Shown here one piece after another: positions 19-14,713 of a DNA stretch of 26,356 nt (its first letter is position 1; every line of letters starts with the position of its first letter). The stretch lies in IMG/VR virus record IMGVR_UViG_2695420471_000001. One strand, 5' to 3'. The stretch comes from a virus. Its lineage: Duplodnaviria; Heunggongvirae; Uroviricota; Caudoviricetes. A program made the position numbers and the translations under genes. The notes under the pieces were generated by a model. That model had not been told where the DNA came from. It worked only from the letters and a program-made list of their open reading frames with translations, and did not search any database.

Positions 19-345
19 TCACTGGCGCTGACACTTCATCACCTCCGGACGTAAATCACCATCCTTTGGTGCATTCAGAAACGCGTTCAGTGTCCCCGGT
101 GCATCAGTCGGTGCCACATCAATATCCCCGACACGGGTTGGCTGCCAGCCGTTACAGTGAAGCGCAACCTCGTAATACCCCGGCTCAGCCTCAATCACAT
201 AAGCACCGTTATTGTCCGTCACGCAAGTGGCAACAACGTGTGCCACAACGGTCGGACTGGTTCTTCTGGCCCGCAGTTCAATCGCACAATTTACGACAGG
301 TTTACCCGCCCCATCTTTCAGTACACCTGAAATCTTTACTGCCAT
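19..345 (-). CDS. stf: Side tail fiber (Stf)-like N-terminal domain protein, short form or truncated
   Basis: Translation from the internal Met reads MAVKISGVLKDGAGKPV..., matching the lambda Stf N-terminus (MAVKISGVLKDGTGKPVQNC...). ATG at 343-345 lies 63 nt downstream of the lom stop, as in lambda. The ORF ends at TGA (19-21) after about 109 aa, where lambda Stf continues; the window edge prevents seeing what follows. Confidence 0.55.
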   Translation of the reverse strand: MAVKISGVLKDGAGKPVVNCAIELRARRTSPTVVAHVVATCVTDNNGAYVIEAEPGYYEVALHCNGWQPTRVGDIDVAPTDAPGTLNAFLNAPKDGDLRPEVMKCQRQ

Positions 346-408
346 ATTCACCCCACAAAAAGCCCGCCTGAACCAGCGGGCAGTCATAACACTGTGTTAC
401 CTGGCTAA

Positions 409-1008
409 TCAGAACTTATAACCGACACCCACGATGAAACCGTCAGTGCGCCAGTCACCACTGCCGGAACCTTCATAAGCAAGGTCAATGGCCACGGATT
501 CGGTCGGGTTAAACTGCACGCCAGCCCCCCACGCCAGAGACGTGTTGCTGTGGCGACCGCCATCACTTCCGGTCAGCACATCGTGCGTTTTCCCCTTGTT
601 GTCAGTTACGCGGAGATAATCCCCGGAGAAGGTCGACACACGGCTGTAAGCCACGCCCGCCATCGCATACGCGCTGAACCATTCATTCACGCGCACAGAC
701 GGCCCCGCCATCACGCTGAACCAGCGGTTACGCACGGAATCCTCATGCCAGCGGGTATCGCTGTAATGCGTTTTTTGCTCATCTTCAGCGTTGGCATAAC
801 TGAATGACGTAATCAGCCCCAGCGTGTCCGTAAACTCATAACGGTATTTCACGTTAATGCCCTTCAGGTCATCGCTGCCTGGCATATCAGTATGGGTCTG
901 AAGATACCCGGCGCTCAGCGTGGACTGATGTTCAGACGCCCATGCAGGCGCACCGGATACGGCCAGACAGATGGCTGCGGACAAAATGGCTGCACAAACT
1001 TTACGCAT
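409..1008 (-). CDS. lom: Lom outer membrane protein (Ail/Lom/OmpX family beta-barrel)
   Basis: 199-aa ORF with signal peptide (MRKVCAAILSAAICLAVSGAPAWA) and near-identity to lambda Lom throughout, ending ...DGFIVGVGYKF. Sits immediately downstream of J as in lambda. Confidence 0.92.
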   Translation of the reverse strand: MRKVCAAILSAAICLAVSGAPAWASEHQSTLSAGYLQTHTDMPGSDDLKGINVKYRYEFTDTLGLITSFSYANAEDEQKTHYSDTRWHEDSVRNRWFSVMAGPSVRVNEWFSAYAMAGVAYSRVSTFSGDYLRVTDNKGKTHDVLTGSDGGRHSNTSLAWGAGVQFNPTESVAIDLAYEGSGSGDWRTDGFIVGVGYKF

Positions 1009-1031
1009 AATTACCTCTCGCTTTTCTGCAA

Positions 1032-1056
1032 TAAAAAAGGCACCATTTCTGGTGCC
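1032..1056 (-). terminator. Rho-independent terminator between J and lom
   Basis: Perfect 7-bp stem ggcacca/tggtgcc (1039-1045 and 1050-1056) with a 4-nt loop, followed on the minus strand by a U-tract (plus-strand aaaaaa at 1033-1038). Confidence 0.5.
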
Positions 1057-1075
1057 CGTATCTGGGTTATAAAAT

Positions 1076-3412
1076 TCAGCTAATCGTGATGCCTGCAGTG
1101 GCTTTCTTCATCACCACAACCAGCAAATCGCTGATACTTGCTGTGGGATACCAGCCATTTACCAGCCATGCCGATACAGAAAACTCCAGCGTCATGTGAC
1201 CGTGACCGGCAGGCATATCAATAACACCCGTATATATCAGCGTATTATCCAGGGTCGTTCGGTTATAAATTTCAGCACCGTTTTTCTTCACTATCAGGCG
1301 GCATGACGAATAAATATTGTTATTCTTCCGCTCATGTTTAGCACCGCGAAACGCCACCGCGGGAATAACAATTTGCCGATCAAACGGCTGATCGTCATAA
1401 ACCCTGACGGTAATGGTCCCTGATGGCCACCTCTCCGGTGCCCGGGAGTCCCGTGGGAAAGGTTTGCCCACTGTTTTAACGAGATCGCCTTCAATCTGGT
1501 TCGCGGACAATTTTCCCAGAACCCGACAGTTCTTATTAATCGTGACGTTGTTGAGCGTCCCGGAGTTCGCGTTCACGTTACCGCTGATATCGGCATTTTT
1601 CGCCGTCAGCCGTCCGCCAGGTGTCAGGGAAAATGCCGGAGGATTACCGCCGCTGGTAATGGTCGGAGCCGTCAGGCATTTCAGGAACACGTCGTTCATG
1701 AATATCTGATCGCCCTGACCAACAAACATCGGCTTTGTGTTGCCATTCGCAGGATTAATCATCGCAATCCTGTCTGCCGCCAGCAGCACCTGACTCTGCA
1801 TTCCTGCTGGCGTATTCTCAATACCGGCACCGATACCCGCAATATAAAGGCGTCCGTCCTTCATCTGTTGCAGCTTCACAGCCCACATGCTGTTCAGGTT
1901 ATTATTTGTATCAACCTGAACTTTCTGTATCTGCTGGATTGCAGCACTCTGATTTTCCAGTTTTTTATTGACGGTTTGCGTGATTTCATTGCTGACATTC
2001 GTAATGGACGTCCTGATTTCAGTCAGGTCCGGCGCAAGCTGACCGTTATCAATCTGCGTCCACAACTCCTTGCCGAGATGCGTTTTATTGATCAACCCTT
2101 TATAAAAATTCAGATAACCTTCTGCATCATCGCTCGCCCGACCGATGGCCTCCACAAATGCCGATTTGCCAACGGTGTTCACACTGCGAACGTAAAAATA
2201 ATAATCATGGCCCGGCCTGATATTGATACTGGCGGCTATCCAGTACAGCGCCGTGCCAAGATAGCGGGCGCTGGTTTCAACCTGCCTGATATCCGCAATC
2301 CGCTTTTCCGAAAACCAGAACTCAAACTGCACCGTCGGGTCATATACAGCCAGTTTCGGGACCGCCGTTATCTGAAAATACCCCGGTATCAGTTCAATAG
2401 TGACAGGCGCTGCCGGTGCCGCAATCCGGAACGATACCGACGCCGGATCGCCCTGCTGCCCCCACGCATTTACTGCCCGGACTGTCAGCCTGTAGTTCCC
2501 CAGCGCCAGTTGTGTGAAGCGGTAAGTGGTTTCCGTCGTCCGGGCCGTGCTGACCAGCCGCTCACTGCCGTCATCCGCTGTTACGGTCAGACGGAGCAGG
2601 AAGCTCACGCCCTTCACCACCTTCGGCGTGTCCCAGCGCGCCAGCACCTGATATTCCCCGCTGTCTGCGGTGACTTCGGCAGTCAGGTGCTGCACCGCTG
2701 GCGGCGTGACACCATTCACCGTGCCGCTCTGGTCGCCGTCAAAGTGCGCCCCGTTATCCACGATGGCTTCTTTTTCCGGCACATGCTGCACGGCGGTGAT
2801 GGCATACGTGCCGTCGTCGTTCTCACGGATACTCACGCAGCGGAACAATCGCTGGTGCAGCGTCGGCAGCTTCAGCCCCCACACGCTGTATTCAGCAACA
2901 CCGTCAGGAACACGGCTCACTTTTACCTTCACGCCGTCGGTGACGGACTGGACCTCCACGCTGACCGGATTCCCCTGCCCGTCAACCAGGCTTATCAGCG
3001 TGGTGCCGGAGGATGGCAGCGTGATTTCACGGTCGAGCGTCAGCGTCCGGGTCTGGCTGTTCACCGCCAGCACGCGCCCGCCGGTGCGGATACCGGCATA
3101 GTCATCATCGCAGATTTCAATGACATCGCCCGGTACATGACGAAGCCCTTCAGCACCCACGCTGAAATCCACGGTCTGCGTCTCCAGCAGTTCCGTTTTA
3201 ATCAGCCACAGCCCGGCGCGGTGTGCCTGCCCCCGGCTGGTACAGCCAAAGGCATCCATCTTCGTGACGTTACGACCGTAACGGACAATGGCCTGCGTAT
3301 CCTCCACAAGCTCTGTCGCCGTCTCCCAGCCGTTATCCGGGTCAATCCAGTTCACCTCAACGGCATTATGGCGGTCTTTCAGGGCGCTGAAACTGTAGCG
3401 GAACGGCGCGCC
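1076..3412 (-). CDS. J: Host specificity protein J (central tail fiber), C-terminal about 778 codons; 5' end runs into an N-gap
   Basis: In-frame continuation of J-like sequence ([22 protein letters not shown]..., repeated fibronectin-like region, ...[35 protein letters not shown]...). Stop at 1076-1078. The N-terminal two thirds are near-identical to lambda J; the last 250 aa or so are recognisably homologous but divergent. Confidence 0.85.
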
Positions 3413-4361
3413 NNNNNNNNNNNGCCCGGACTGTCAGACTGTAATTCCCCAGCGCCAGCTGCCTGAAGCGGTATGTGGTTTCCGTCGTCCTGGCTGTGCT
3501 GACCAGCCGCTCACTGCCGTCGTCCGCTGCCACGGTCAGGCGAAGCAGGAAGCTCACACCCTTCACCACCTTCGGCGTGTCCCATCGCGCCAGCACCTGA
3601 TATTCCCCGCTGTCTGCGGTGACTTCGGCGGTCAGATGCTGCACCGCTGGCGGCGTGACACCATTCACCGTGCCGCGCCGGTCACCGTCAAAGTGTGCCC
3701 CGTTATCCACGATGGCCTCTTTTTCCGGCACATGCTGCACGGCGGTGATGGCATACGTGCCGTCGTCGTTCTCACGGATACTCACGCAGCGGAACAGACG
3801 CTGGCGCAGCGTCGGCAGCTTCAGCCCCCACACGCTGTATTCTGCAACGCCGTCAGGAACCCGGCTCACTTTCACCTTCACGCCGTCGGTGACGGACTGG
3901 ACCTCCACGCTGACCGGATTGCCACTTCCGTCAACCAGGCTTATCAGCGTGGTACCGGAGGACGGCAGCGTGATTTCACGGTCGAGCGTCAGCGTCCGGG
4001 TCTGGCTGTTCACCGCCAGTACGCGACCACCGGTGCTGATACCGGCATAATCATCATCGCAGATTTCAATGACATCACCCGGTACATGGCGAAGCCCTTC
4101 TGCGCCCACGCTGAAGTCCACGGTCTGCGTTTCCAGCAGTTCCGTTTTAATCAGCCACAGCCCGGCTCGGTGTGCCTGCCCCCGGCTGGTACAGCCAAAG
4201 GCATCCATCTTCGTGACATTACGACCGTAACGGGCAATGGCCTGCGTATCCTCCACAAGCTCTGTCGCCGTCTCCCAGCCGTTATCTGGGTCAATCCAGT
4301 TCACCTCAACGGCATTATGGCGGTCCTTCAGGGCGCTGAAGCTGTAGCGGAACGGCGCGCC
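2475..4361. repeat. Two near-identical copies (about 938 bp each) of an internal J segment, flanking the 11-N gap
   Basis: 2475-3412 aligns base-for-base with 3424-4361 apart from scattered SNPs (for example AIVRYGRNV vs AIARYGRNV, DGQGNP vs [18 protein letters not shown] vs RFRQLALGNYSL in translation). Confidence 0.85.
3413..3423. other. Run of 11 N (assembly gap or masked bases)
   Basis: Literal n characters in the sequence; flanked on both sides by J sequence from different positions of the gene. Confidence 0.95.
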
Positions 4362-5504
4362 ATCGTCCGGCATCACCACATTACTGCGGTTATAGGTCCA
4401 CACCTTATCCGACGGTCGGTCCTGCACGAACGTCAGCATCTGTCCGTTCCATACCGGCATACAGCGCATCGCCGAGCAGAAATCACTGAGAACATCCCAC
4501 GCCTTACGCTGTGTGGTCAGGTAAGAGTTACAGGTGATGCGCGGCTCCGTGCCGCCAAATCCGTCCGTCACTGACTGGTCGCAGTACTGGCCGATGACAT
4601 ACAGCGCCCATTTGTCCACATCTGCCGCACCAAGACGTTTCCCCATGCCGTAGCGCGGATGAGTGAGCATGTCCCACAGACACCAGGCCATGTTGTTGCT
4701 GTATGCTGGCTTAAGCGTTCCGTCCCAGATACCGCTGTATTGCCGCGTCTGCGGGTTATAGTTCGACGGCACCTGCAGAATGCGCCCGCGAAGATGATAA
4801 TTGCGACTCACCTGCTGGTTACCGAACTGCTCTGAATCCACCTGCACGCCGACCAGCGCCGTGTTCGGGTAGCACTGTTTCACATCGATGATTTCGGTGT
4901 ATGACGACCAGAGCGTTTTGTTCTGCAGCTGGTCTGTGGTGCTGTCCGGTGTCATCCTGCGCATCCGGATATTAAACGGGCGCGGCGGCAGGTTACCCAC
5001 CACCACCGAGGCCAGATACTGCGAAGTGGTTTTGCCCTTAATGGTGATGTCTTTTTCCGTCACCCAGCCACCGTTACGCTGTATCTGAACCAGCAGGCGG
5101 ACTTCCGACGGATTCCGGTCACCCTTTGAGGTGGTTTCCACCAGTGCCTGCACACCGAAGGTCAGGCGCAGACGGTCGATGTTTGCCGACGTGATGGTCC
5201 GGGTGATCGGCGTGTCATATTTCACTTCCGTACCCAGCACCGTCTCGGAGCCGGAGGATTCAAAACCCTCCGGCGGTGTCTGCTCCTGCTCACCTGCACG
5301 GAACACCACCGTAACACCGGAAAAGTTTGTCTTCCCCTCGCTGTCCAGGACCGGCGTACCGTTCAGCAGCACGCTTTTTAATCCATCCACCGGACCGTCA
5401 ACCGGCCCTTCGCTGATGGCATCAATCACACTCAGCAACTGCGTGGATTTCAGGTTGTCCTTCGCTTCGCGCGGGGTATGCCCCTTACTGCTGCCTTTAC
5501 CCAT
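3424..5504 (-). CDS. J: Host specificity protein J, N-terminal about 693 codons (copy B); 3' end runs into the N-gap
   Basis: ATG at 5502-5504; begins MGKGSSKGHTPREAKDNLKSTQLLSVIDAISEGPV..., near-identical to the lambda J N-terminus. The apparent continuation to a stop at 3366 passes through the N-run and is not real. Confidence 0.85.
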
Positions 5505-5564
5505 TCCTCACGCTCCATAAACGACAAAACCGCCCGCAGGCGGTTTCACATAAAACATTTTGCA

Positions 5565-6206
5565 TCAGCGACCAATCACCACAACCTGACCACCATCCCC
5601 TTCGTCTGCCGTGCTGATCTCCTGAGAAACCACACGTGACCCCACGCGCATTTCACCGTACAGAACGGGCAGAACATTGCCCTGGGCAACCATGTTATCC
5701 AGTGACGAGAAATACGTGTTCTGCTTACCGTTATCCGTTGTCTGTGTACGGGGAGTTCTGGCTTTCGGTGCCAGCATCTGTGCAACACCGCCAAGCGTCA
5801 TACTGGCACCGAGAGAAAACAGCAGATTACTCGCCATAATTCCTACCCCCGGCATCCATATAGCAACCGCCATAACAGCCGCCCCCAGCACCGCCTGAAA
5901 CACACCGCCACTTTTAGCTCCCACCAGACGCGGTACTATGTGGATCACTGCACCATTTGCCAGCGGCTCATTAAGACGGGCAGACAATTCGGTTTCACCT
6001 GCATCACGCCCGGCAATGCGCACCTGATACCAGCCGTCACTCAGTTTCTGACGAAACGCCGGGAGCTGTGTGGCCAGTGCCCGGATGGCTTCAGCCCCCG
6101 TTTTCACACGAAGGTCGATGCGGCGACCAAATCGTTGTAAATCCCCGTAAAGGCAGATGCGCGCCATGCCCGGTGACGCCAGAGGGAGTGTGTGCGTCGC
6201 TGCCAT
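5565..6206 (-). CDS. I: Tail assembly protein I (copy 1, variant with shorter hydrophobic central segment)
   Basis: 213 aa; MAATHTLPLASPGMARICLYGDLQRFGRRIDLRVKTGAEAIRALATQLPAFRQKLSDGWYQVRIAG... matches lambda I. Overlaps the 3' end of K by about 100 nt and lies 60 nt upstream of J, exactly as in lambda. Confidence 0.85.
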   Translation of the reverse strand: MAATHTLPLASPGMARICLYGDLQRFGRRIDLRVKTGAEAIRALATQLPAFRQKLSDGWYQVRIAGRDAGETELSARLNEPLANGAVIHIVPRLVGAKSGGVFQAVLGAAVMAVAIWMPGVGIMASNLLFSLGASMTLGGVAQMLAPKARTPRTQTTDNGKQNTYFSSLDNMVAQGNVLPVLYGEMRVGSRVVSQEISTADEGDGGQVVVIGR

Positions 6207-6847
6207 TTGTCGGTATACCTCTCTCGTTTGCTCAGTTGTTCAGGAATATGGTGCAGCAGCTCGCCGTCACCACAGTAAATGGCGGCATGATTCGGCACCG
6301 ATGAACCAAAACAGCACAGCAGCACATCGCCCGGCTGTGCCTCTGTCAGTGCGACACGGTAAAAACCCGTCACCTCCATATTGTCAAGATAGAGATTCTG
6401 ACCGTTACGCCACCAGTCATCCCCGCGATGAAAATCCGGCATCTCAATCCCTGCCAGATGATAAGCATCCCGGAACAGCGTGTAACAGTCCGTCACCCCG
6501 TGCTCAAAGCGCCGCCCGGTAAGATGTGGCACACAGCGGAACTTGTGAATCGCCCCCCGGCAGACCAGCCACCACGGCAAATCACTCTGCACCTGCAGCC
6601 GCCGGTCAGCCTCACTCAGCCAGGGCAGACCACCGGGATGACTGTGGACCAGCGCCACAATCTCACCCTGCATTTGTGCCCGCAGCCAGTCCTCCGGAGC
6701 CATCCGGAACCGTTCCTCCGGCTCACCGGAGATATTCTCGCTGGGAAGATACCTGTCTCCCTCCGGCGTTCTTACCACGAAGCCACACGACTCCGCTGGC
6801 GCACATCGCCGGGCGTGCGCCAGAATCGCTGATTCTGTCTGTGTCAT
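6104..6847 (-). CDS. K: Tail tip assembly protein K (copy 1; JAMM/MPN plus NlpC/P60 domains)
   Basis: Start set at MTQTESAILAHARRCAPAESCGFVV (ATG 6845-6847), by homology to copy 2; the longer 335-aa track ORF is an upstream extension into L. JAMM motif HSHPGGLPWLSEAD is present. Confidence 0.85.
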   Translation of the reverse strand: MTQTESAILAHARRCAPAESCGFVVRTPEGDRYLPSENISGEPEERFRMAPEDWLRAQMQGEIVALVHSHPGGLPWLSEADRRLQVQSDLPWWLVCRGAIHKFRCVPHLTGRRFEHGVTDCYTLFRDAYHLAGIEMPDFHRGDDWWRNGQNLYLDNMEVTGFYRVALTEAQPGDVLLCCFGSSVPNHAAIYCGDGELLHHIPEQLSKRERYTDKWQRRTHSLWRHRAWRASAFTGIYNDLVAASTFV

Positions 6848-6851
6848 GGAT

Positions 6852-7550
6852 TTACTGAGAAAGTTTATTGATGGAAAGGAAACCGCCGAAATTACCGGTA
6901 TTGTTGCGCAACTCACACCCGCGCATACACTTGCTGCATTTGTCCTTCCGGATATCCGTCGTTGGTTTGTCGAACTCGTCAGCCACTGCCCTGCCCGTGT
7001 AACCACACTCATCAGAACGGTAAGTCCACATACAGGTATTCGCCAGCATGATACGCCCCGGGAAAACCGCGCCATCCGTCTCCGTTGGTGTGGCCAGCAC
7101 AAAAGAGGCACTGACCGCGCTCAGTTCGCTGCACTGCTCGATGCGCCAGCGGCTGATCACCTCCTGTTCCGGATCGGCGTCGCTGTTTCCGTTGACGAAG
7201 TTCACCGCATCCAGAAAACGGGCGTAAACCTTACGCCTGACCACCGTTCCGCCGACCAGACTCTGCAGGTCTTCCGCCATCCCGGTGACCATTCCGTGCA
7301 GGTTAGAAACCGTCAGTGTCGGACGGGCAGCACTGCCCTTGCCGTTCAGTTCAAATCCCGTCCCCTGAATGGGGTATGCCTGATACTGCCGCCCCTGCCA
7401 GGTAACCGGCTCACCTTTTTCGTTCTGCTCATTACAGAAAAAATAACGTTCTCCACCGACCTCTGTCAGATCGATTTCCCAGAGCACCACCTGGGCTGAC
7501 TGAGTGAGGCGTGTCGTCTCATGATGTGTTTCCTGTGGAATATCCTGCAT
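6852..7550 (-). CDS. L: Minor tail protein L (copy 1)
   Basis: 232 aa, same length as lambda L; about 90% identical by eye to copy 2. C-terminal cysteine cluster (DKCSKCMRGC) consistent with the Fe-S site described for gpL. Confidence 0.88.
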   Translation of the reverse strand: MQDIPQETHHETTRLTQSAQVVLWEIDLTEVGGERYFFCNEQNEKGEPVTWQGRQYQAYPIQGTGFELNGKGSAARPTLTVSNLHGMVTGMAEDLQSLVGGTVVRRKVYARFLDAVNFVNGNSDADPEQEVISRWRIEQCSELSAVSASFVLATPTETDGAVFPGRIMLANTCMWTYRSDECGYTGRAVADEFDKPTTDIRKDKCSKCMRGCELRNNTGNFGGFLSINKLSQ

Positions 7551-7559
7551 CAGAGCCTC

Positions 7560-7889
7560 CTATGCCACGACCTGTTCAAAATCTGCCGTTATGGTTACCC
7601 ACAACGCCCCCACGCTTGCCGACCATTTACGACAAACCACCCTGATCGGCTTCCAGTCATAAGGTGGCGTCCACTGAAATGCGCGGACGCCACCGTGCCG
7701 TTCCAGAAAGGCTTTTAAAAATGGGTGTTCACCTTTACGAACACGTATCTTCACGCTGTAAGTCGACAACTGGTTATTCAGTCCCGCCGCACGACGCTGT
7801 TCATAACCATCGCCCAGCTTCACTGTCACCACTTTCGGCTCTGATACCACATTCATATCCGGGCGCACTTTCCAGTGAAACGTCTCCAT
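7560..7889 (-). CDS. M: Minor tail protein M (copy 1, divergent allele)
   Basis: 109 aa, same length and position as lambda M but only about 50% identical by eye to copy 2 (METFHWKVRPDMNVVSEP... vs MKTFRWKVKPGMDVASAP...). Confidence 0.8.
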   Translation of the reverse strand: METFHWKVRPDMNVVSEPKVVTVKLGDGYEQRRAAGLNNQLSTYSVKIRVRKGEHPFLKAFLERHGGVRAFQWTPPYDWKPIRVVCRKWSASVGALWVTITADFEQVVA

Positions 7890-8228
7890 TACCGGTATGC
7901 TCCACTTAACCGGCCACCATCACGGGCCTGCTGTTGCATAAAGTCCGCGGCCGCTTTTTTCCCGAGGTCATAAACCACCTTCAGGGCAGCCGGACCTATC
8001 TGCCCGTTCGTGCCATCGTTATTGATCTCAATGTTGTACTGCGGGGCAAACATCACCATGCCTGAACCACCAGTATCCGCCACACCCCCCAGCTTACCAT
8101 CAGCACCGCGACGCAGTGGCAGAATGGCTTCAGGTCCCGCTTCCCCCATCACACCCGCGCCTTTTGCAAAAGCAAAAAACGTCGGACGGTTAACCACCGT
8201 GCCACTGTAGCGACTCAAATCAGCAGAC
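7889..8228 (-). pseudogene. H: Tape measure protein H, 3' fragment only (C-terminal 110 codons or so), truncated at an IS junction
   Basis: Translation ...YNIEINNDGTNGQIGPAALKVVYDLGKKAAADFMQQQARDGGRLSGAYR aligns with the lambda H C-terminus (...NHVVIQNDGTNGLPGPQMMKAVYDMARKGARDEIQTQMRDGGLFSGGGR). Its stop overlaps the M start. Upstream the reading frame runs into IS-like sequence and hits a stop; no H N-terminus is present. Confidence 0.7.
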
Positions 8229-8353
8229 TGAGGTAGCCTGAGTTTAACGGACACTCCTTCCTGAAATAGAATGGCATCAGAAGGAGCTAATAATGAGCAG
8301 AAAAACCCAACGTTACTCTAAAGAGTTCAAAGCCGAAGCTGTCAGAACGGTTC
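8229..8353 (+). mobile_element. IS3-family insertion sequence, left end only (putative inverted repeat plus first 20 codons of orfA); possibly IS600-like
   Basis: Good RBS (aaggag) then ATG at 8293 encoding MSRKTQRYSKEFKAEAVRTV, a typical IS3-family OrfA N-terminus (HTH region). Upstream sequence begins tgaggtagcctgagtttaacgg, consistent with a TG-initiated terminal inverted repeat. The element is cut off by NNN at 8354. The left boundary is approximate (about +/-10 bp). Confidence 0.6.
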
Positions 8354-8356
8354 NNN
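8354..8356. other. Run of 3 N at the IS/J junction
   Basis: Literal nnn; IS orfA sequence on one side, internal J sequence (minus strand) on the other. Confidence 0.95.
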
Positions 8357-9749
8357 TCCAGCAGTTCCGTTTTAATCAGCCACAGCCCGGCGCGGTGTGC
8401 CTGCCCCCGGCTGGTACAGCCAAAGGCATCCATCTTCGTGACGTTACGACCGTAACGGACAATGGCCTGCGTATCCTCCACAAGCTCTGTCGCCGTCTCC
8501 CAGCCGTTATCCGGGTCAATCCAGTTCACCTCAACGGCATTATGGCGGTCTTTCAGGGCGCTGAAACTGTAGCGGAACGGCGCGCCATCATCCGGCATCA
8601 CCACATTACTGCGGTTATAGGCCCACACCTTATCCGACTGTCGGTCCTGCACGAACGTCAGCGTCTGCCCGTTCCATACCGGCATACAGCGCATCGCCGA
8701 GCAGAAATCACTGAGCACATCCCACGCCTTGCGCTGTGTGGTCAGCCAGGCATTACAGGTGATGCGCGGCTCCGTGCTGCCAAAGCCGTCCGGCACCGAC
8801 TGGTCACAGTACTGGCCGATGACATACAGCGCCCATTTATCCACATCTGCCGCACCAAGACGTTTCCCCATGCCATAGCGCGGATGGGTCAGCATATCCC
8901 ACAGACACCAGGCCATGTTGTTGCTGTATGCCGGTTTTAACGTTCCGTCCCAGATACCGCTGTATTGCCGCGTCTGCGGNNNNNNNNNNNNNNNNNNNNN
9001 TTATAGTTCGACGGCACCTGCAGAATGCGCCCGCGAAGATGATAATTGCGACTCACCTGCTGGTTACCGAACTGCTCTGAATCCACCTGCACGCCGACCA
9101 GCGCCGTGTTCGGGTAGCACTGTTTCACATCGATGATTTCGGTGTATGACGACCAGAGCGTTTTGTTCTGCAGCTGGTCTGTGGTGCTGTCCGGTGTCAT
9201 CCTGCGCATCCGGATATTAAACGGGCGCGGCGGCAGGTTACCCACCACCACCGAGGCCAGATACTGCGAAGTGGTTTTGCCCTTAATGGTGATGTCTTTT
9301 TCCGTCACCCAGCCACCGTTACGCTGTATCTGAACCAGCAGGCGAACTTCAGACGGATTCCTGTCTCCCTTTGAGGTGGTTTCCACCAGTGCCTGTACAC
9401 CGAAGGTAAAACGCAGTCGGTCAATGTTTGCCGACGTGATGGTCCGGGTGATCGGCGTGTCATATTTCACTTCCGTACCCAGCACCGTCTCGGAGCCGGA
9501 GGATTCAAATCCCTCCGGCGGTGACTGCTCCTGCTCACCTGCCCGGAACACCACCGTGACGCCGGAGATGTTGGTATTCCCCTCACTGTCCAGCACCGGC
9601 GTACTGTTCAGCAGCACGCTTTTTAATCCATCCACCGGACCTTCAACCGGCCCTTCGCTGATGGCATCGATCACACTCAGCAGCTGCGTGGACTTCAGGT
9701 TGTCCTTCGCTTCGCGCGGGGTATGCCCCTTACTGCTGCCTTTACCCAT
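8357..9749 (-). CDS. J: Host specificity protein J, N-terminal about 465 codons (copy C), interrupted by a 21-N run at 8980-9000 and ending at the IS junction
   Basis: ATG at 9747-9749; MGKGSSKGHTPREAKDNLKSTQLL... It follows I (copy 2) after the same 60-nt spacer as lambda. About 98% identical to copy B with scattered substitutions (VEGPVDG vs VDGPVDG, NSTPVLDSEGNTNISG vs NGTPVLDSEGKTNFSG). The frame is broken by the N-run, which replaces 1 nt with 21 N. Confidence 0.85.
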
Positions 9750-9809: not shown

Positions 9810-10481
9810 TCAGCGACCAATCACCACAACCTGACCACCGTCCCCTTCGTCTGCCGTGCTGATCTCCTGAGATACCACACGTGACCCCACGCGCATTTCA
9901 CCATACAGAACAGGCATAACATTGCCCTGGGCAACCATGTTATCCAGTGAGGAGAAATAGGTGTTCTGCTTACCGTTATCCGTTGTCTGTGTGCGGGGAG
10001 TTCTGGCTTTCGGTGCCAGCATCTGAGCCACACCGCCGAGCACCATACTGGCACCGAGAGAAAACAGAATGCCGGTCATACCACCGGCACCAATGGCAGC
10101 CCCCCATGCTGCAAGGGTGGCTCCGGCGGTAAAGAATGATCCGGCAATGGCGGCTGCTCCCAGGACAATCTGGAATACACCACCTGACTTGGCCCCGGCG
10201 ACTCTGGGAACAATATGAATCACAGCGCCGTCAGGCAGAGCCTCATGTAACTGTGCCGTTAATCCGGACGTGCTAACATCCTGCCCGGCAATACGCACCT
10301 GATACCAGCCGTCGCTCAGCTTCTGACGAAACGCAGGGAGCTGTGTGGCCATCGCCCGGATGGCTTCGGCACCCGTTTTCACACGAAGGTCGATGCGGCG
10401 GCCAAATCGTTGCAAATCCCCGTAAAGGCAGATGCGTGCCATGCCCGGTGACGCCAGAGGGAGTGTGTGCGTCGCTGCCAT
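9810..10481 (-). CDS. I: Tail assembly protein I (copy 2, lambda-type)
   Basis: 223 aa, the lambda I length, with near-identity to lambda I including the Gly/Ala-rich hydrophobic segment. Confidence 0.93.
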   Translation of the reverse strand: MAATHTLPLASPGMARICLYGDLQRFGRRIDLRVKTGAEAIRAMATQLPAFRQKLSDGWYQVRIAGQDVSTSGLTAQLHEALPDGAVIHIVPRVAGAKSGGVFQIVLGAAAIAGSFFTAGATLAAWGAAIGAGGMTGILFSLGASMVLGGVAQMLAPKARTPRTQTTDNGKQNTYFSSLDNMVAQGNVMPVLYGEMRVGSRVVSQEISTADEGDGGQVVVIGR

Positions 10482-12155: not shown

Positions 12156-14713
12156 CGTCCACCTCCGGAGAACAGGCCACCATCACGCATCTGTGTCTGA
12201 ATTTCATCACGGGCACCCTTGCGGGCCATGTCATACACGGCCTTCATCATCTGTGGACCTGGCAGACCATTCGTACCGTCGTTCTGAATCACCACGTGAT
12301 TGTTCTGATTAAAATTAATGCCTTCAGCCCGCCGCATCTGCGCCGGACTTCCGGCACCGCCCACATAACCACCTTCCGCATAGCCGCGCATCAGCCGGTA
12401 GAGATTCCCCACGCCAATCCGGCTGGTTGCCTCCTTCGTGAAGACAAATTCACCACGGTGAACAATCCCCGCTGGCTCATATTTGCCGCCGGTTCCCGTA
12501 AATCCCCCGGTTGCAAAATGGAATTTCACCGCAGCGGCCTGAATGGCTGTACCACCTGACGCGGATGCGCCGCCACCAACAGCCCCGCCAATGGCGCTGC
12601 CGATACTCCCGACAATCCCCACCATTGCCTGCTTAAGCAGAATTTCTGTCATCATGGACAGCACGGAGCGGGTGAAGCTGCGCCAGTTCTGTTCACTGCC
12701 GGTCAGCATCGCCGCCATATTCTGTGCAATACCATCAAAGGTCTGCGTGGCTGCACTTTTAACCTGTGACATACTGTCCGTGGCGCTCTCTTCCCACTCA
12801 CTCCAGCCGGACTTCAGGCCTGCCATCCAGCTCCCGCGAAGCTGGTCTTCAGCCGCCCAGGTCTTTTTCTGCTCTGACATGACGTTATTCAGCGCCAGAG
12901 GATTATCGCCATACTGTTCCTTCAGGCGCTGTTCCGTGGCTTCCCGCGCTGCCTGCCGGTCAGTCAGCCCCCGGTTTTTCGCATCAATGGCTGCCCGTTT
13001 TGCCCGTTGCTGCTGTGCGAATTTATCCGCCTGCTGCGCCAGCGCATTCAGGTGCTCCTGATACGTAACCTTGTCACCAAGTGCAGCCAGCTGGCGTTTG
13101 TACTCCAGCGTCTCGTCTTTATGCGCCAGCAGGGATTTCTCCTGTGCGGACAGCTGGCGACGTTGTGCCGCCTCCTCCAGTACCGCGAACTGACTTTCTG
13201 CCTTCCACAAATCCCGGCGCTGCTGGCTGATTTTCTCATTCGCTCCGGCATGCTTCTCCAGCGTCCGGAGTTCTGCCTGAAGCGTCAGCAGGGCCGCATG
13301 AGCACTGTCTTCCTGACGATCGCCCGCATACACCTTCACGCCGGACTGTTTCGGCTTTTTCAGCGTCGCTTCATAATCCTTTTTCGCCGCCGCCATCAGC
13401 GTGTTGTAATCTGCCTGCAGGATTTTTCCGTCTTTCAGTGCCTTGTTCAGTTCTTCCTGACGGGCGGTATATTTCTCCAGCGGCGTCTGCAGCCGTTCGT
13501 AAGCCTTCTGCGCCTCTTCGGTATATTTCAGCCGTGACGCTTCGGTATCGCTCTGCTGCTGCGCATTTTTGTCCTGTTGACGCTGTTGATCTACCCTCTT
13601 TTGGGCTGCATCCCGCTCCAGGCGTTTTTTTTCACGATCATCCCAGTAACGCGCCCGTGCTTCATCGTTAACGAAATAATCATCCTTGCGCAGATTCCAG
13701 ATGTCGTCTGCTTTCTTAAACGCAGCCTCTGCCTTAATCAGCATCTCCTGCGCGGTATCAGGACGACCAATATCCAGCACCGCATCCCACATGGATTTGA
13801 ATGCACGTGCAGTCCTGTCTGCCCAGGTCTCCAGCGTGCCCATGTTCTCTTTCAGGCGGCGGGTCTGGTCATCAAACCCTTTCGTTGCGGCCTCGTTCGC
13901 CGCCTGCAATGCCCCGGCTTCATCGCCGGAACGCTGCAACTGAGCAACATACGCAATCTGCTCCGCCGTCACGTTATGGAACTGGCGTGCCATCGCCGTC
14001 AGCCCCGACGTCGGGTCTGTGGTCAGCTTCCCGAAGGCTTCAGCGACCTTGTCCACCTCCACGCCGGATGCATAGGAGAAACGCGCCACACTCTGGCTGA
14101 TGGACGCAATCTGAGCCTCACCGCTTACCCCCGCCTTAACCAGTGCGCTGAGTGACTCGCTGGTCTGGTTAAACGTCAGCCCTGCCGCCTGCCCGGCTCT
14201 GGACAGGACCAGCATACGATCTGCCGTCAGTCCCGCCTGATTACCGGAAAGGACCAGCGTTTTGTTGAAATCGGACAGGGTTGAGTTGCCCTGATACCAG
14301 GCATACGCCAGCGCACCGGTCGCCACCGCCAGCGAGGTGGCCCCCACCATCGGCAGGGTGATCGCGCCGGCAAGCCCCCTGAACATGGGGATCATCCCGC
14401 CGAAGGAGTCCTTAACCTGACCACCCTGTTGCAGCAGGATCAGCCAGGGATTCTGCCCCCCTGCAAGCTGCGTGGCCACGTCGGTGAACTGTGCAGGCAG
14501 CATACGCATGGCGGCTTTATACTGCCCGACGGAAATCCCCGCTTTCTGTGCAGCCAGCGCCTGTCGGCTCAGCGACTGTTCAACGACTGCCGCTGTTTTT
14601 TTCGCATCACTTTCCGTACCGGAAAAATGACGCCTGACTCTGGCCATCTGCTCGTCAAATCTGGCCGCATCCAGACTCAAATCAACGACCAGATCGCCTA
14701 CCGGTTCAGCCAT
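12152..14713 (-). CDS. H: Tail tape measure protein H
   Basis: 853 aa, the lambda H length; long coiled-coil-rich middle region; C-terminus ...VIQNDGTNGLPGPQMMKAVYDMARKGARDEIQTQMRDGGLFSGGGR. Start overlaps the end of the T frame. Confidence 0.95.
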   Translation of the reverse strand: MAEPVGDLVVDLSLDAARFDEQMARVRRHFSGTESDAKKTAAVVEQSLSRQALAAQKAGISVGQYKAAMRMLPAQFTDVATQLAGGQNPWLILLQQGGQVKDSFGGMIPMFRGLAGAITLPMVGATSLAVATGALAYAWYQGNSTLSDFNKTLVLSGNQAGLTADRMLVLSRAGQAAGLTFNQTSESLSALVKAGVSGEAQIASISQSVARFSYASGVEVDKVAEAFGKLTTDPTSGLTAMARQFHNVTAEQIAYVAQLQRSGDEAGALQAANEAATKGFDDQTRRLKENMGTLETWADRTARAFKSMWDAVLDIGRPDTAQEMLIKAEAAFKKADDIWNLRKDDYFVNDEARARYWDDREKKRLERDAAQKRVDQQRQQDKNAQQQSDTEASRLKYTEEAQKAYERLQTPLEKYTARQEELNKALKDGKILQADYNTLMAAAKKDYEATLKKPKQSGVKVYAGDRQEDSAHAALLTLQAELRTLEKHAGANEKISQQRRDLWKAESQFAVLEEAAQRRQLSAQEKSLLAHKDETLEYKRQLAALGDKVTYQEHLNALAQQADKFAQQQRAKRAAIDAKNRGLTDRQAAREATEQRLKEQYGDNPLALNNVMSEQKKTWAAEDQLRGSWMAGLKSGWSEWEESATDSMSQVKSAATQTFDGIAQNMAAMLTGSEQNWRSFTRSVLSMMTEILLKQAMVGIVGSIGSAIGGAVGGGASASGGTAIQAAAVKFHFATGGFTGTGGKYEPAGIVHRGEFVFTKEATSRIGVGNLYRLMRGYAEGGYVGGAGSPAQMRRAEGINFNQNNHVVIQNDGTNGLPGPQMMKAVYDMARKGARDEIQTQMRDGGLFSGGGR

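Follow-up and report, generated by a model that had tools for sequence, protein, structure and literature searches.

The exchange of the C-terminal part of J, the central tail fibre or tip attachment protein of lambdoid phages, and its part in receptor choice are textbook knowledge, as exemplified by the lambda h434 hybrids, and the last 249 residues of lambda J are known to bind the porin LamB. In the terms used for the lambda tail structure (PMC11101478), the distal part of the protein comprises FNIII-1, FNIII-2, a shaft of alpha-helices, a straight fibre, and the RBD (receptor-binding domain). Brödel et al. (Nature 2024; PMC11338833) placed natural gpJ C-termini on lambda gpJ at residue 964, and with the resulting chimeras A8 and 1A2 the delivery of DNA into cells deleted for lamB requires a suitable OmpC. 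According to the source data of that study, delivery by 1A2 reached about 98% with OmpC-EDL933 versus about 2% with OmpC-MG1655, and a follow-up paper aims 1A2 at O157. The protein deposited as "A8 gpJ 713" has been solved both closed (PDB 9WCA) and open, the latter bound to OmpC G17 of EDL933 (PDB 9WCB). Phage 21 (phi21), which uses LamB natively, gains OmpC by the single change I1025T.

Here we describe gene J in a stretch of 26,356 nucleotides of a caudovirus (IMG/VR record IMGVR_UViG_2695420471_000001), which is referred to as the window. A sequence-only reading had proposed that J in this DNA carries a swapped C-terminal receptor-binding region. In our analysis, the region is the 3' third of gene J and carries a naturally exchanged C-terminal module: residues 1-814, with the hub and two Ig/FNIII domains, are of the lambda type, followed from residue 815 by a shaft 28 residues longer than that of lambda, by a straight fibre of the phi21/Sakai type, and, past a joint at residues 951-1000, by an Ig-like RBD (residues 1026-1159) of the VT1-Sakai/gpJ-1A2 class. 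Taken as a whole, the account of an exchanged J module of this class that binds OmpC is in our judgement probably correct.

Layout of the window and reconstruction of gene J

On the minus strand of the window lie the late (morphogenesis) genes of a lambda-like prophage. In the ORF map, homologues of Nu1 and A (about 25064-22619) are followed by H, M, L, K, I, J, lom, and the start of stf, and the tail gene order H-M-L-K-I-J-lom-stf matches the lambda annotation when the contig at 3424-8353 is left aside (Table 1). The stf ORF has a lambda-Stf-like N-terminus, MAVKISGVLKDG, which starts at residue 15. The sequence-only reading had treated J as one contiguous gene, and this view had to be given up: J is present in pieces across scaffold joins, with a foreign contig inside.

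Table 1 Features of gene J and of its surroundings in the window
Feature	J residues	Position	Strand	Evidence or remark
stf/orf-401 homologue, start		19..387	-	ATG-to-stop ORF of 122 aa; lambda-like gene order
lom homologue		409..1008	-	199-aa ORF, adjoins J downstream; equivalent in CFSAN029787 and VT1-Sakai annotated as Ail/Lom family protein
J stop codon		1076-1078	-	ORF ending at 1076
RBD proper	1026-1159	1079..1480	-	Pfam PF12421 Ig_GpJ_C, J1030-1159, E=1.9e-36
Hairpin RKNNN (KEHTD in Sakai/1A2)	1076-1080	1316..1330	-	Alignment; turn between two predicted strands
Conserved island	951-1000	1556..1705	-	88% DNA identity to lambda; flanks 64% (5') and 53% (3')
Central straight fibre	872-1000	1556..1942	-	Pfam PF09327 Phage_Tail_Tip, E=7.5e-31
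Start of divergence and alpha-helical shaft	815-871	1943..2113	-	Alignments; between Ig_J_second (ends J818) and Phage_Tail_Tip (starts J872)
28-aa insertion relative to lambda	836-856, 860-866	1958-2050	-	Alignment; within shaft
Lambda-like part contiguous with C-terminus	382-814	2114..3412	-	95.7% aa identity; Pfam Phage-tail_3, Ig_J, Ig_J_second
Interposed second contig, outside the J gene under study		3424..8353	-	Holds IS600 end, H', M', L', K', I', J'
J'	1-693 (of J')	5504-3424	-	Interposed contig
I'		6206-5565	-	Interposed contig
L'		7550-6852	-	Interposed contig
M'		7889-7560	-	Interposed contig
H', truncated C-terminus		8254-7889	-	Interposed contig; 3'-terminal 121 codons of a second tape-measure gene
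IS600 left end		8255-8353	-	100% match to annotated IS600 copies; abuts truncated H'
J, middle piece	251-458	8357..8979	-	N runs on either side (8354-8356, 8980-9000)
J, N-terminal piece	1-250	9001..9749	-	ORF map; downstream of I
I		10481-9810	-	Upstream of J N-terminal piece
H (tape measure)		14713-12152	-	2562 nt

The window contains three runs of N, at 3413-3423, 8354-8356, and 8980-9000, and these are joins made in scaffolding a draft assembly. The 21 Ns at 8980-9000 take the place of a single missing base (between SNYN and PQTRQYSG), at 8354-8356 codon ~458 of J gives way to internal sequence of an IS600 transposase gene, and at 3413-3423 the sequence jumps from residue 693 of J' back to residue 382 of J, so that this run is not a gap within a gene. 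Masked sequence was ruled out as an explanation of the N runs, because 21 Ns replace one base in one of them and the other two separate unrelated positions. The 3' ends of ORF calls that span an N run (e.g., 8937-9749 and 3366-5504) are artefactual.

J is thus split in the window and has to be rebuilt from 9749-9001, 8979-8357, and 3412-1076. The C-terminal stretch, which begins at 3412, extends back to residue 382 only, and two candidates for its upstream partner were compared. The 3' 230 nt of 8979-8357 are 100% identical to 3412-3183, whereas J' overlaps the C-terminal piece by 939 nt with 94.5% identity, and for this reason J' was rejected and 8979-8357 was taken as the true upstream partner. 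Joining 9749-9001, one base, 8979-8357, and 3182-1076 yields a single ORF of 3480 nt that encodes 1159 residues. What had been called a composite J is a reconstruction, and the conclusions based on it stand with either upstream piece.

The second tail-tip module (3424-8353) shows 89-96% DNA identity to the first one, and the contig probably stems from another, IS-truncated prophage and was placed here by scaffolding rather than being a true tandem duplication. Its IS600 end at 8255-8353 fits a Shigella or enteroinvasive Escherichia coli (EIEC) source, in line with the best matches of the J allele. The I homologues are 213 residues (5565-6206) and 223 residues (9810-10481) long, with the shorter one deviating in the central glycine/alanine-rich stretch, and the second K ORF (6104-7111) is listed with a long extension at its N-terminus, which is probably spurious.

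Such an assembly raises the question whether the composite J could have arisen in assembly or be a defective remnant, with a C-terminal module that is not expressed in a working tail tip. There are three scaffold joins within J or beside it, a foreign contig separates the pieces, one base is missing at a join, and the J of VT1-Sakai is itself split by mutation. Against these points stand the 230-nt overlap of the flanking pieces at 100% identity, the reconstructed frame, which is open over 1159 codons, and intact orthologues of 1159 residues in complete genomes, and we consider a defective J quite improbable; it would in any case bear on the expression of the module and not on its identity. 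The rebuilt pieces suggest that J is intact in the real genome, with the reconstruction crossing two joins and with one base missing at 8980-9000. As presented in the record, the window serves as a warning, since a J "gene" is stitched over scaffold joins.

Divergence from lambda J and domain anatomy

Rebuilt J is 97.2% identical to lambda J over residues 1-400 and 95.7% over residues 401-814, and identity falls to 62% over residues 815-990, which include the 28 inserted residues, and to 44.4% over residues 991-1159. The ORF ending at 1076 has a C-terminal sequence of its own, whereas lambda J ends ...DVQVMVIKKQALGISVV; both C-terminal sequences had been quoted correctly in the sequence-only reading. 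Over the last 150 residues of lambda J, 59 of 149 positions (39.6%) are identical in window J, as compared with the value of more than 90% that this reading had named as speaking against a divergent C-terminus. Its estimate that J is 25-30 residues longer than lambda J also proved right, as the lengths are 1159 and 1132 residues, respectively, and the difference of 27 corresponds to the 28-residue insertion minus one residue. With respect to the extent of the divergence, the description of a C-terminus that is homologous yet different stood, but the proposed sizes did not: about 345 residues are divergent and about 814 conserved, instead of about 250 and about 900. Likewise, the range 1076-1900 that had been assigned to the divergent region ends too early, since it covers the last 275 codons only; divergence begins at J residue ~815 (window ~2113), just past an EGYLNFYKG motif, and the divergent part extends over 1079-2113.

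At the DNA level, J matches lambda with 92-98% identity as far as about nt 2100 and with 84-91% as far as nt 2400; the values are then 40-64% at nt 2401-2850, 88% in an island at nt 2851-3000, and 53-60% from there to the end, so that the drop from 92-98% to 40-64% takes place inside about 300 nt. Gradual divergence by drift was ruled out as the cause, because the profile changes abruptly and contains a conserved island, both of which argue for recombination. Judged from the alignments, this stepwise profile is a recombination mosaic between lambdoid phages that goes far beyond chance, and its breakpoints agree with the earlier proposal of a swapped C-terminal receptor-binding module.

All Pfam domains were found above their cut-offs and in the order Phage-tail_3, Ig_J (J610-714), Ig_J_second (J716-818), Phage_Tail_Tip (J872-1000), and Ig_GpJ_C (J1030-1159). 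The Pfam hits thus reproduce the domain order of lambda-type J proteins, i.e., hub, two Ig/FNIII domains, shaft, straight fibre, and C-terminal Ig-like RBD, and in the nomenclature introduced above Ig_J, Ig_J_second, Phage_Tail_Tip, and Ig_GpJ_C correspond to FNIII-1, FNIII-2, straight fibre, and RBD (PMC11101478). The NCBIfam profile lambda_TipJ (NF049904) was scored with the contiguous piece of 778 residues, which matched positions 382-1163 of 1163 with 1470 bits; the full-length cut-off of 1950 bits is beyond the reach of a partial protein. The length of this profile, 1163 positions, indicates that the long J is the usual form and that lambda J with its 1132 residues is the short one.

The structure prediction that had been proposed as a check (AF2, last 200 residues) gave a confident beta-sandwich for the RBD (pLDDT 78-96), and the strands of the fibre were of low confidence, as expected for a single chain of an intertwined trimer. 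The best Foldseek matches of the model were 9wca and 9wcb, followed by 8xck and 8xcj, and a phmmer search against the PDB likewise returned A8 gpJ 713 (9wca; E=3e-118) ahead of lambda gpJ. The conserved island at residues 951-1000 is likely to be a natural recombination joint of fibre and RBD, and the junction chosen by Brödel et al. at lambda residue 964 lies inside it (PMC11338833). Within this otherwise conserved joint, residue 960 (window 1676-1678) is a cysteine in the motif FLKCLTAPT; the substitution is unique, with arginine in lambda and EIEC gpJ and tyrosine in Sakai and phi21 at this position.

Relatives, prevalence, and predicted receptor

Over the RBD proper (residues 1026-1159), window J is 100% identical to gpJ of EIEC CFSAN029787, 91.8% to VT1-Sakai J (123/134, with no indels), 66.9% to A8, 64.6% to phi21, and 39.6% to lambda; depending on the span compared, the value for Sakai is 91.8-92.9%. 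These figures place the RBD in the VT1-Sakai/gpJ-1A2 class. The longer hairpin NFNSNNQQSYW and the shorter segment RNGSYASG of the phi21/A8 class are both absent from it. The published DNA sequences of 1A2 and A8 were taken from a machine-read PDF supplement with base errors and were compared with a frameshift-tolerant aligner, counting cleanly read codons: on this basis, 143 of 158 clean codons (90.5%) agree between 1A2 and the window and 154 of 158 between 1A2 and the Sakai RBD, and the A8 tail is nearest to phi21 (about 81% identity).

Upstream of the RBD, residues 815-990 are 91% identical to phi21 and 94% to Sakai, and for residues 867-990 the values are 63.7% (lambda), 92.7% (phi21), and 96.8% (Sakai). 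From these comparisons, the module is itself a mosaic, with shaft and fibre near both phi21 and Sakai and an RBD of the Sakai type. For the final 329 residues, identity amounts to 94.5% with J of the VT1-Sakai and PPompW prophages, as against about 79% with phage 21 and with many "Lambda_ev" phages. Three further candidates for related tips or leads were set aside: the C-terminus of Gifsy-1 J is 18% identical to lambda and represents a different module, the OmpC-using phi330 has an RBD of another class (35-40% identical to lambda and 434), and a receptor-prediction preprint of 2026 covers GpJ of Drexlerviridae and leaves out lambda.

Of 5426 complete E. coli genomes searched by megablast with 990 nt, 4479 contained related DNA; 3489 of the matching records were at 90-95% identity and 13 at 95% or above, and EIEC CFSAN029787 is one of the near-exact matches. 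An exact 57-mer of the RBD is present in Shigella flexneri SFBU1023, a 100% identical fragment has been recorded from Shigella dysenteriae, and the long J with the insertion is common to phi21 (1160 residues), EIEC gpJ, and S. flexneri J (1159 residues each). The allele class is ordinary, widespread, annotated, and functionally characterised; prophages of E. coli and Shigella usually carry J in this form, and the short J of lambda is less typical.

With respect to the receptor, we consider it likely that window J uses OmpC and not LamB, with an allele that differs from 1A2 in one hairpin. The prediction is drawn by analogy from the membership of the RBD in the Sakai/1A2 class, the OmpC dependence of 1A2, and the structural match to 9WCB; the chimeras covered the part after lambda residue 964, with the longer shaft outside them. 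An identity of 92% is a good but not a conclusive guide to the receptor, because the RBDs of A8 (OmpC) and phi21 (natively LamB) are about 81% identical and yet differ in receptor.

A rival reading is that LamB is retained, as in phi21, with the divergence reflecting another binding mode on the same porin, perhaps on a Shigella/EIEC variant of LamB. Phi21 shares the long shaft and fibre and is a native LamB user, and single substitutions can flip receptor choice in this family; both window J and Sakai J have leucine at phi21 position 1025. The RBD proper is, however, just 64.6% identical to that of phi21, from which it is separated by two indels, and 92% identical to the Sakai/1A2 RBD, which functions without LamB. 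A LamB-dependent window J therefore seems distinctly unlikely to us, and OmpC is kept as the predicted receptor.

For the Sakai/1A2 RBD class, the porin would accordingly be OmpC in particular variants. By homology with lambda gpJ-LamB (PDB 8XCJ), for which the trigger mechanism has been described (PMC11101478), and with A8 gpJ-OmpC (PDB 9WCB), the trimeric RBD of this exact allele may dock its distal loops in the extracellular mouth of a trimeric porin. Docking would spread the bases of the RBDs and twist the fibre, the helical shaft would flip next, and the tail tip would then open for ejection of the DNA.

Relative to Sakai/1A2, the RBD carries five consecutive changes in the hairpin J1076-1080, which aligns to lambda residues 1048-1052 and where phi21 and A8 have a 5-residue insertion, and one at G1134 in a long loop, which aligns to lambda residue 1106. 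In lambda, residues near 1104-1107 belong to those that are altered in the evolution of OmpF use. Differences in the hairpin and at G1134 could shift the specificity for OmpC variants. That the sub-allele found in Shigella and EIEC (RKNNN for KEHTD, together with G1134) has been retuned to the OmpC variants of these hosts or to another porin is a tentative and rather doubtful suggestion. Also unlikely, in our opinion, is a reading of the same substitutions in which this sub-allele has moved to OmpF, OmpA, or narrow OmpC variants outside the range of 1A2. It would account for the clustering of the changes in hairpin and loop, for the rarity of the sub-allele in complete E. coli genomes (the 13 versus 3489 records mentioned above), and for its occurrence in EIEC, S. 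flexneri, and S. dysenteriae, and 1A2 itself tells OmpC variants apart; at 92% identity with a conserved core, however, the receptor is usually kept, and use of OmpC remains the preferred reading.

As a discovery the allele carries little weight, as its RBD class has already been exploited, characterised, and annotated in public genomes. By analogy with 1A2, it predicts that particles of the prophage would adsorb via OmpC and not via LamB, and the Shigella/EIEC sub-allele might serve as a candidate tip when lambda particles are engineered against those pathogens. If the retuning of the sub-allele were true, it would represent a natural case in which the tail tip of a prophage tracks receptor variants at a fine scale, and it would supply a ready-made module for targeting Shigella.

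Comparison with described J proteins

Lambda gpJ (P03749; PDB 8IYK, 8XCK, 8XCJ), which binds LamB, resembles window J in gene position (after I and before lom and stf), in domain order and RBD fold, and in sequence over residues 1-814 (96-97% identity). It differs in its shaft, which has 28 more residues in window J, in its fibre (64% identity) and RBD (39.6% identity), and in the receptor, which for window J is predicted to be OmpC instead of LamB.

The phi21 J protein (UMO75436.1) and the A8 gpJ chimera (9WCA, 9WCB) share with window J the long shaft and fibre as well as the RBD fold, and A8 gpJ is the best solved match to window J and was solved with OmpC bound. Their RBDs belong to another class, with 64.6-67% identity, a hairpin that is 5 residues longer, and a 4-residue deletion relative to the window, and phi21 uses LamB natively.

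J of VT1-Sakai (Sp15), J of PPompW, and gpJ-1A2 have the same RBD class and the same long shaft and fibre as window J. The VT1-Sakai/1A2 RBD differs from that of the window at 11-12 residues, including those of the hairpin J1076-1080 and G1134, and the N-terminal part of Sakai J is far more diverged (57-81% DNA identity). The annotation of VT1-Sakai J (518-3990 of its locus) gives two CDSs that overlap and are "truncated by a mutation", so that the type phage of the Sakai RBD class has a broken J.

The closest relatives are gpJ of EIEC CFSAN029787 (WP_046880234.1), which has 1159 residues and an RBD 100% identical to that of the window, and J of S. flexneri SFBU1023, also of 1159 residues, which is 97.7% identical overall. 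The CFSAN029787 prophage carries a frameshifted ipaH effector gene (12887-14529 of its locus) downstream of the tail fibre genes. It differs from the window in its backbone, with a tape-measure gene of 3042 nt (1095-4136 of its locus) versus 2562 nt in the window, and since these genes differ while the RBDs are identical, the allele moves between prophage backbones.
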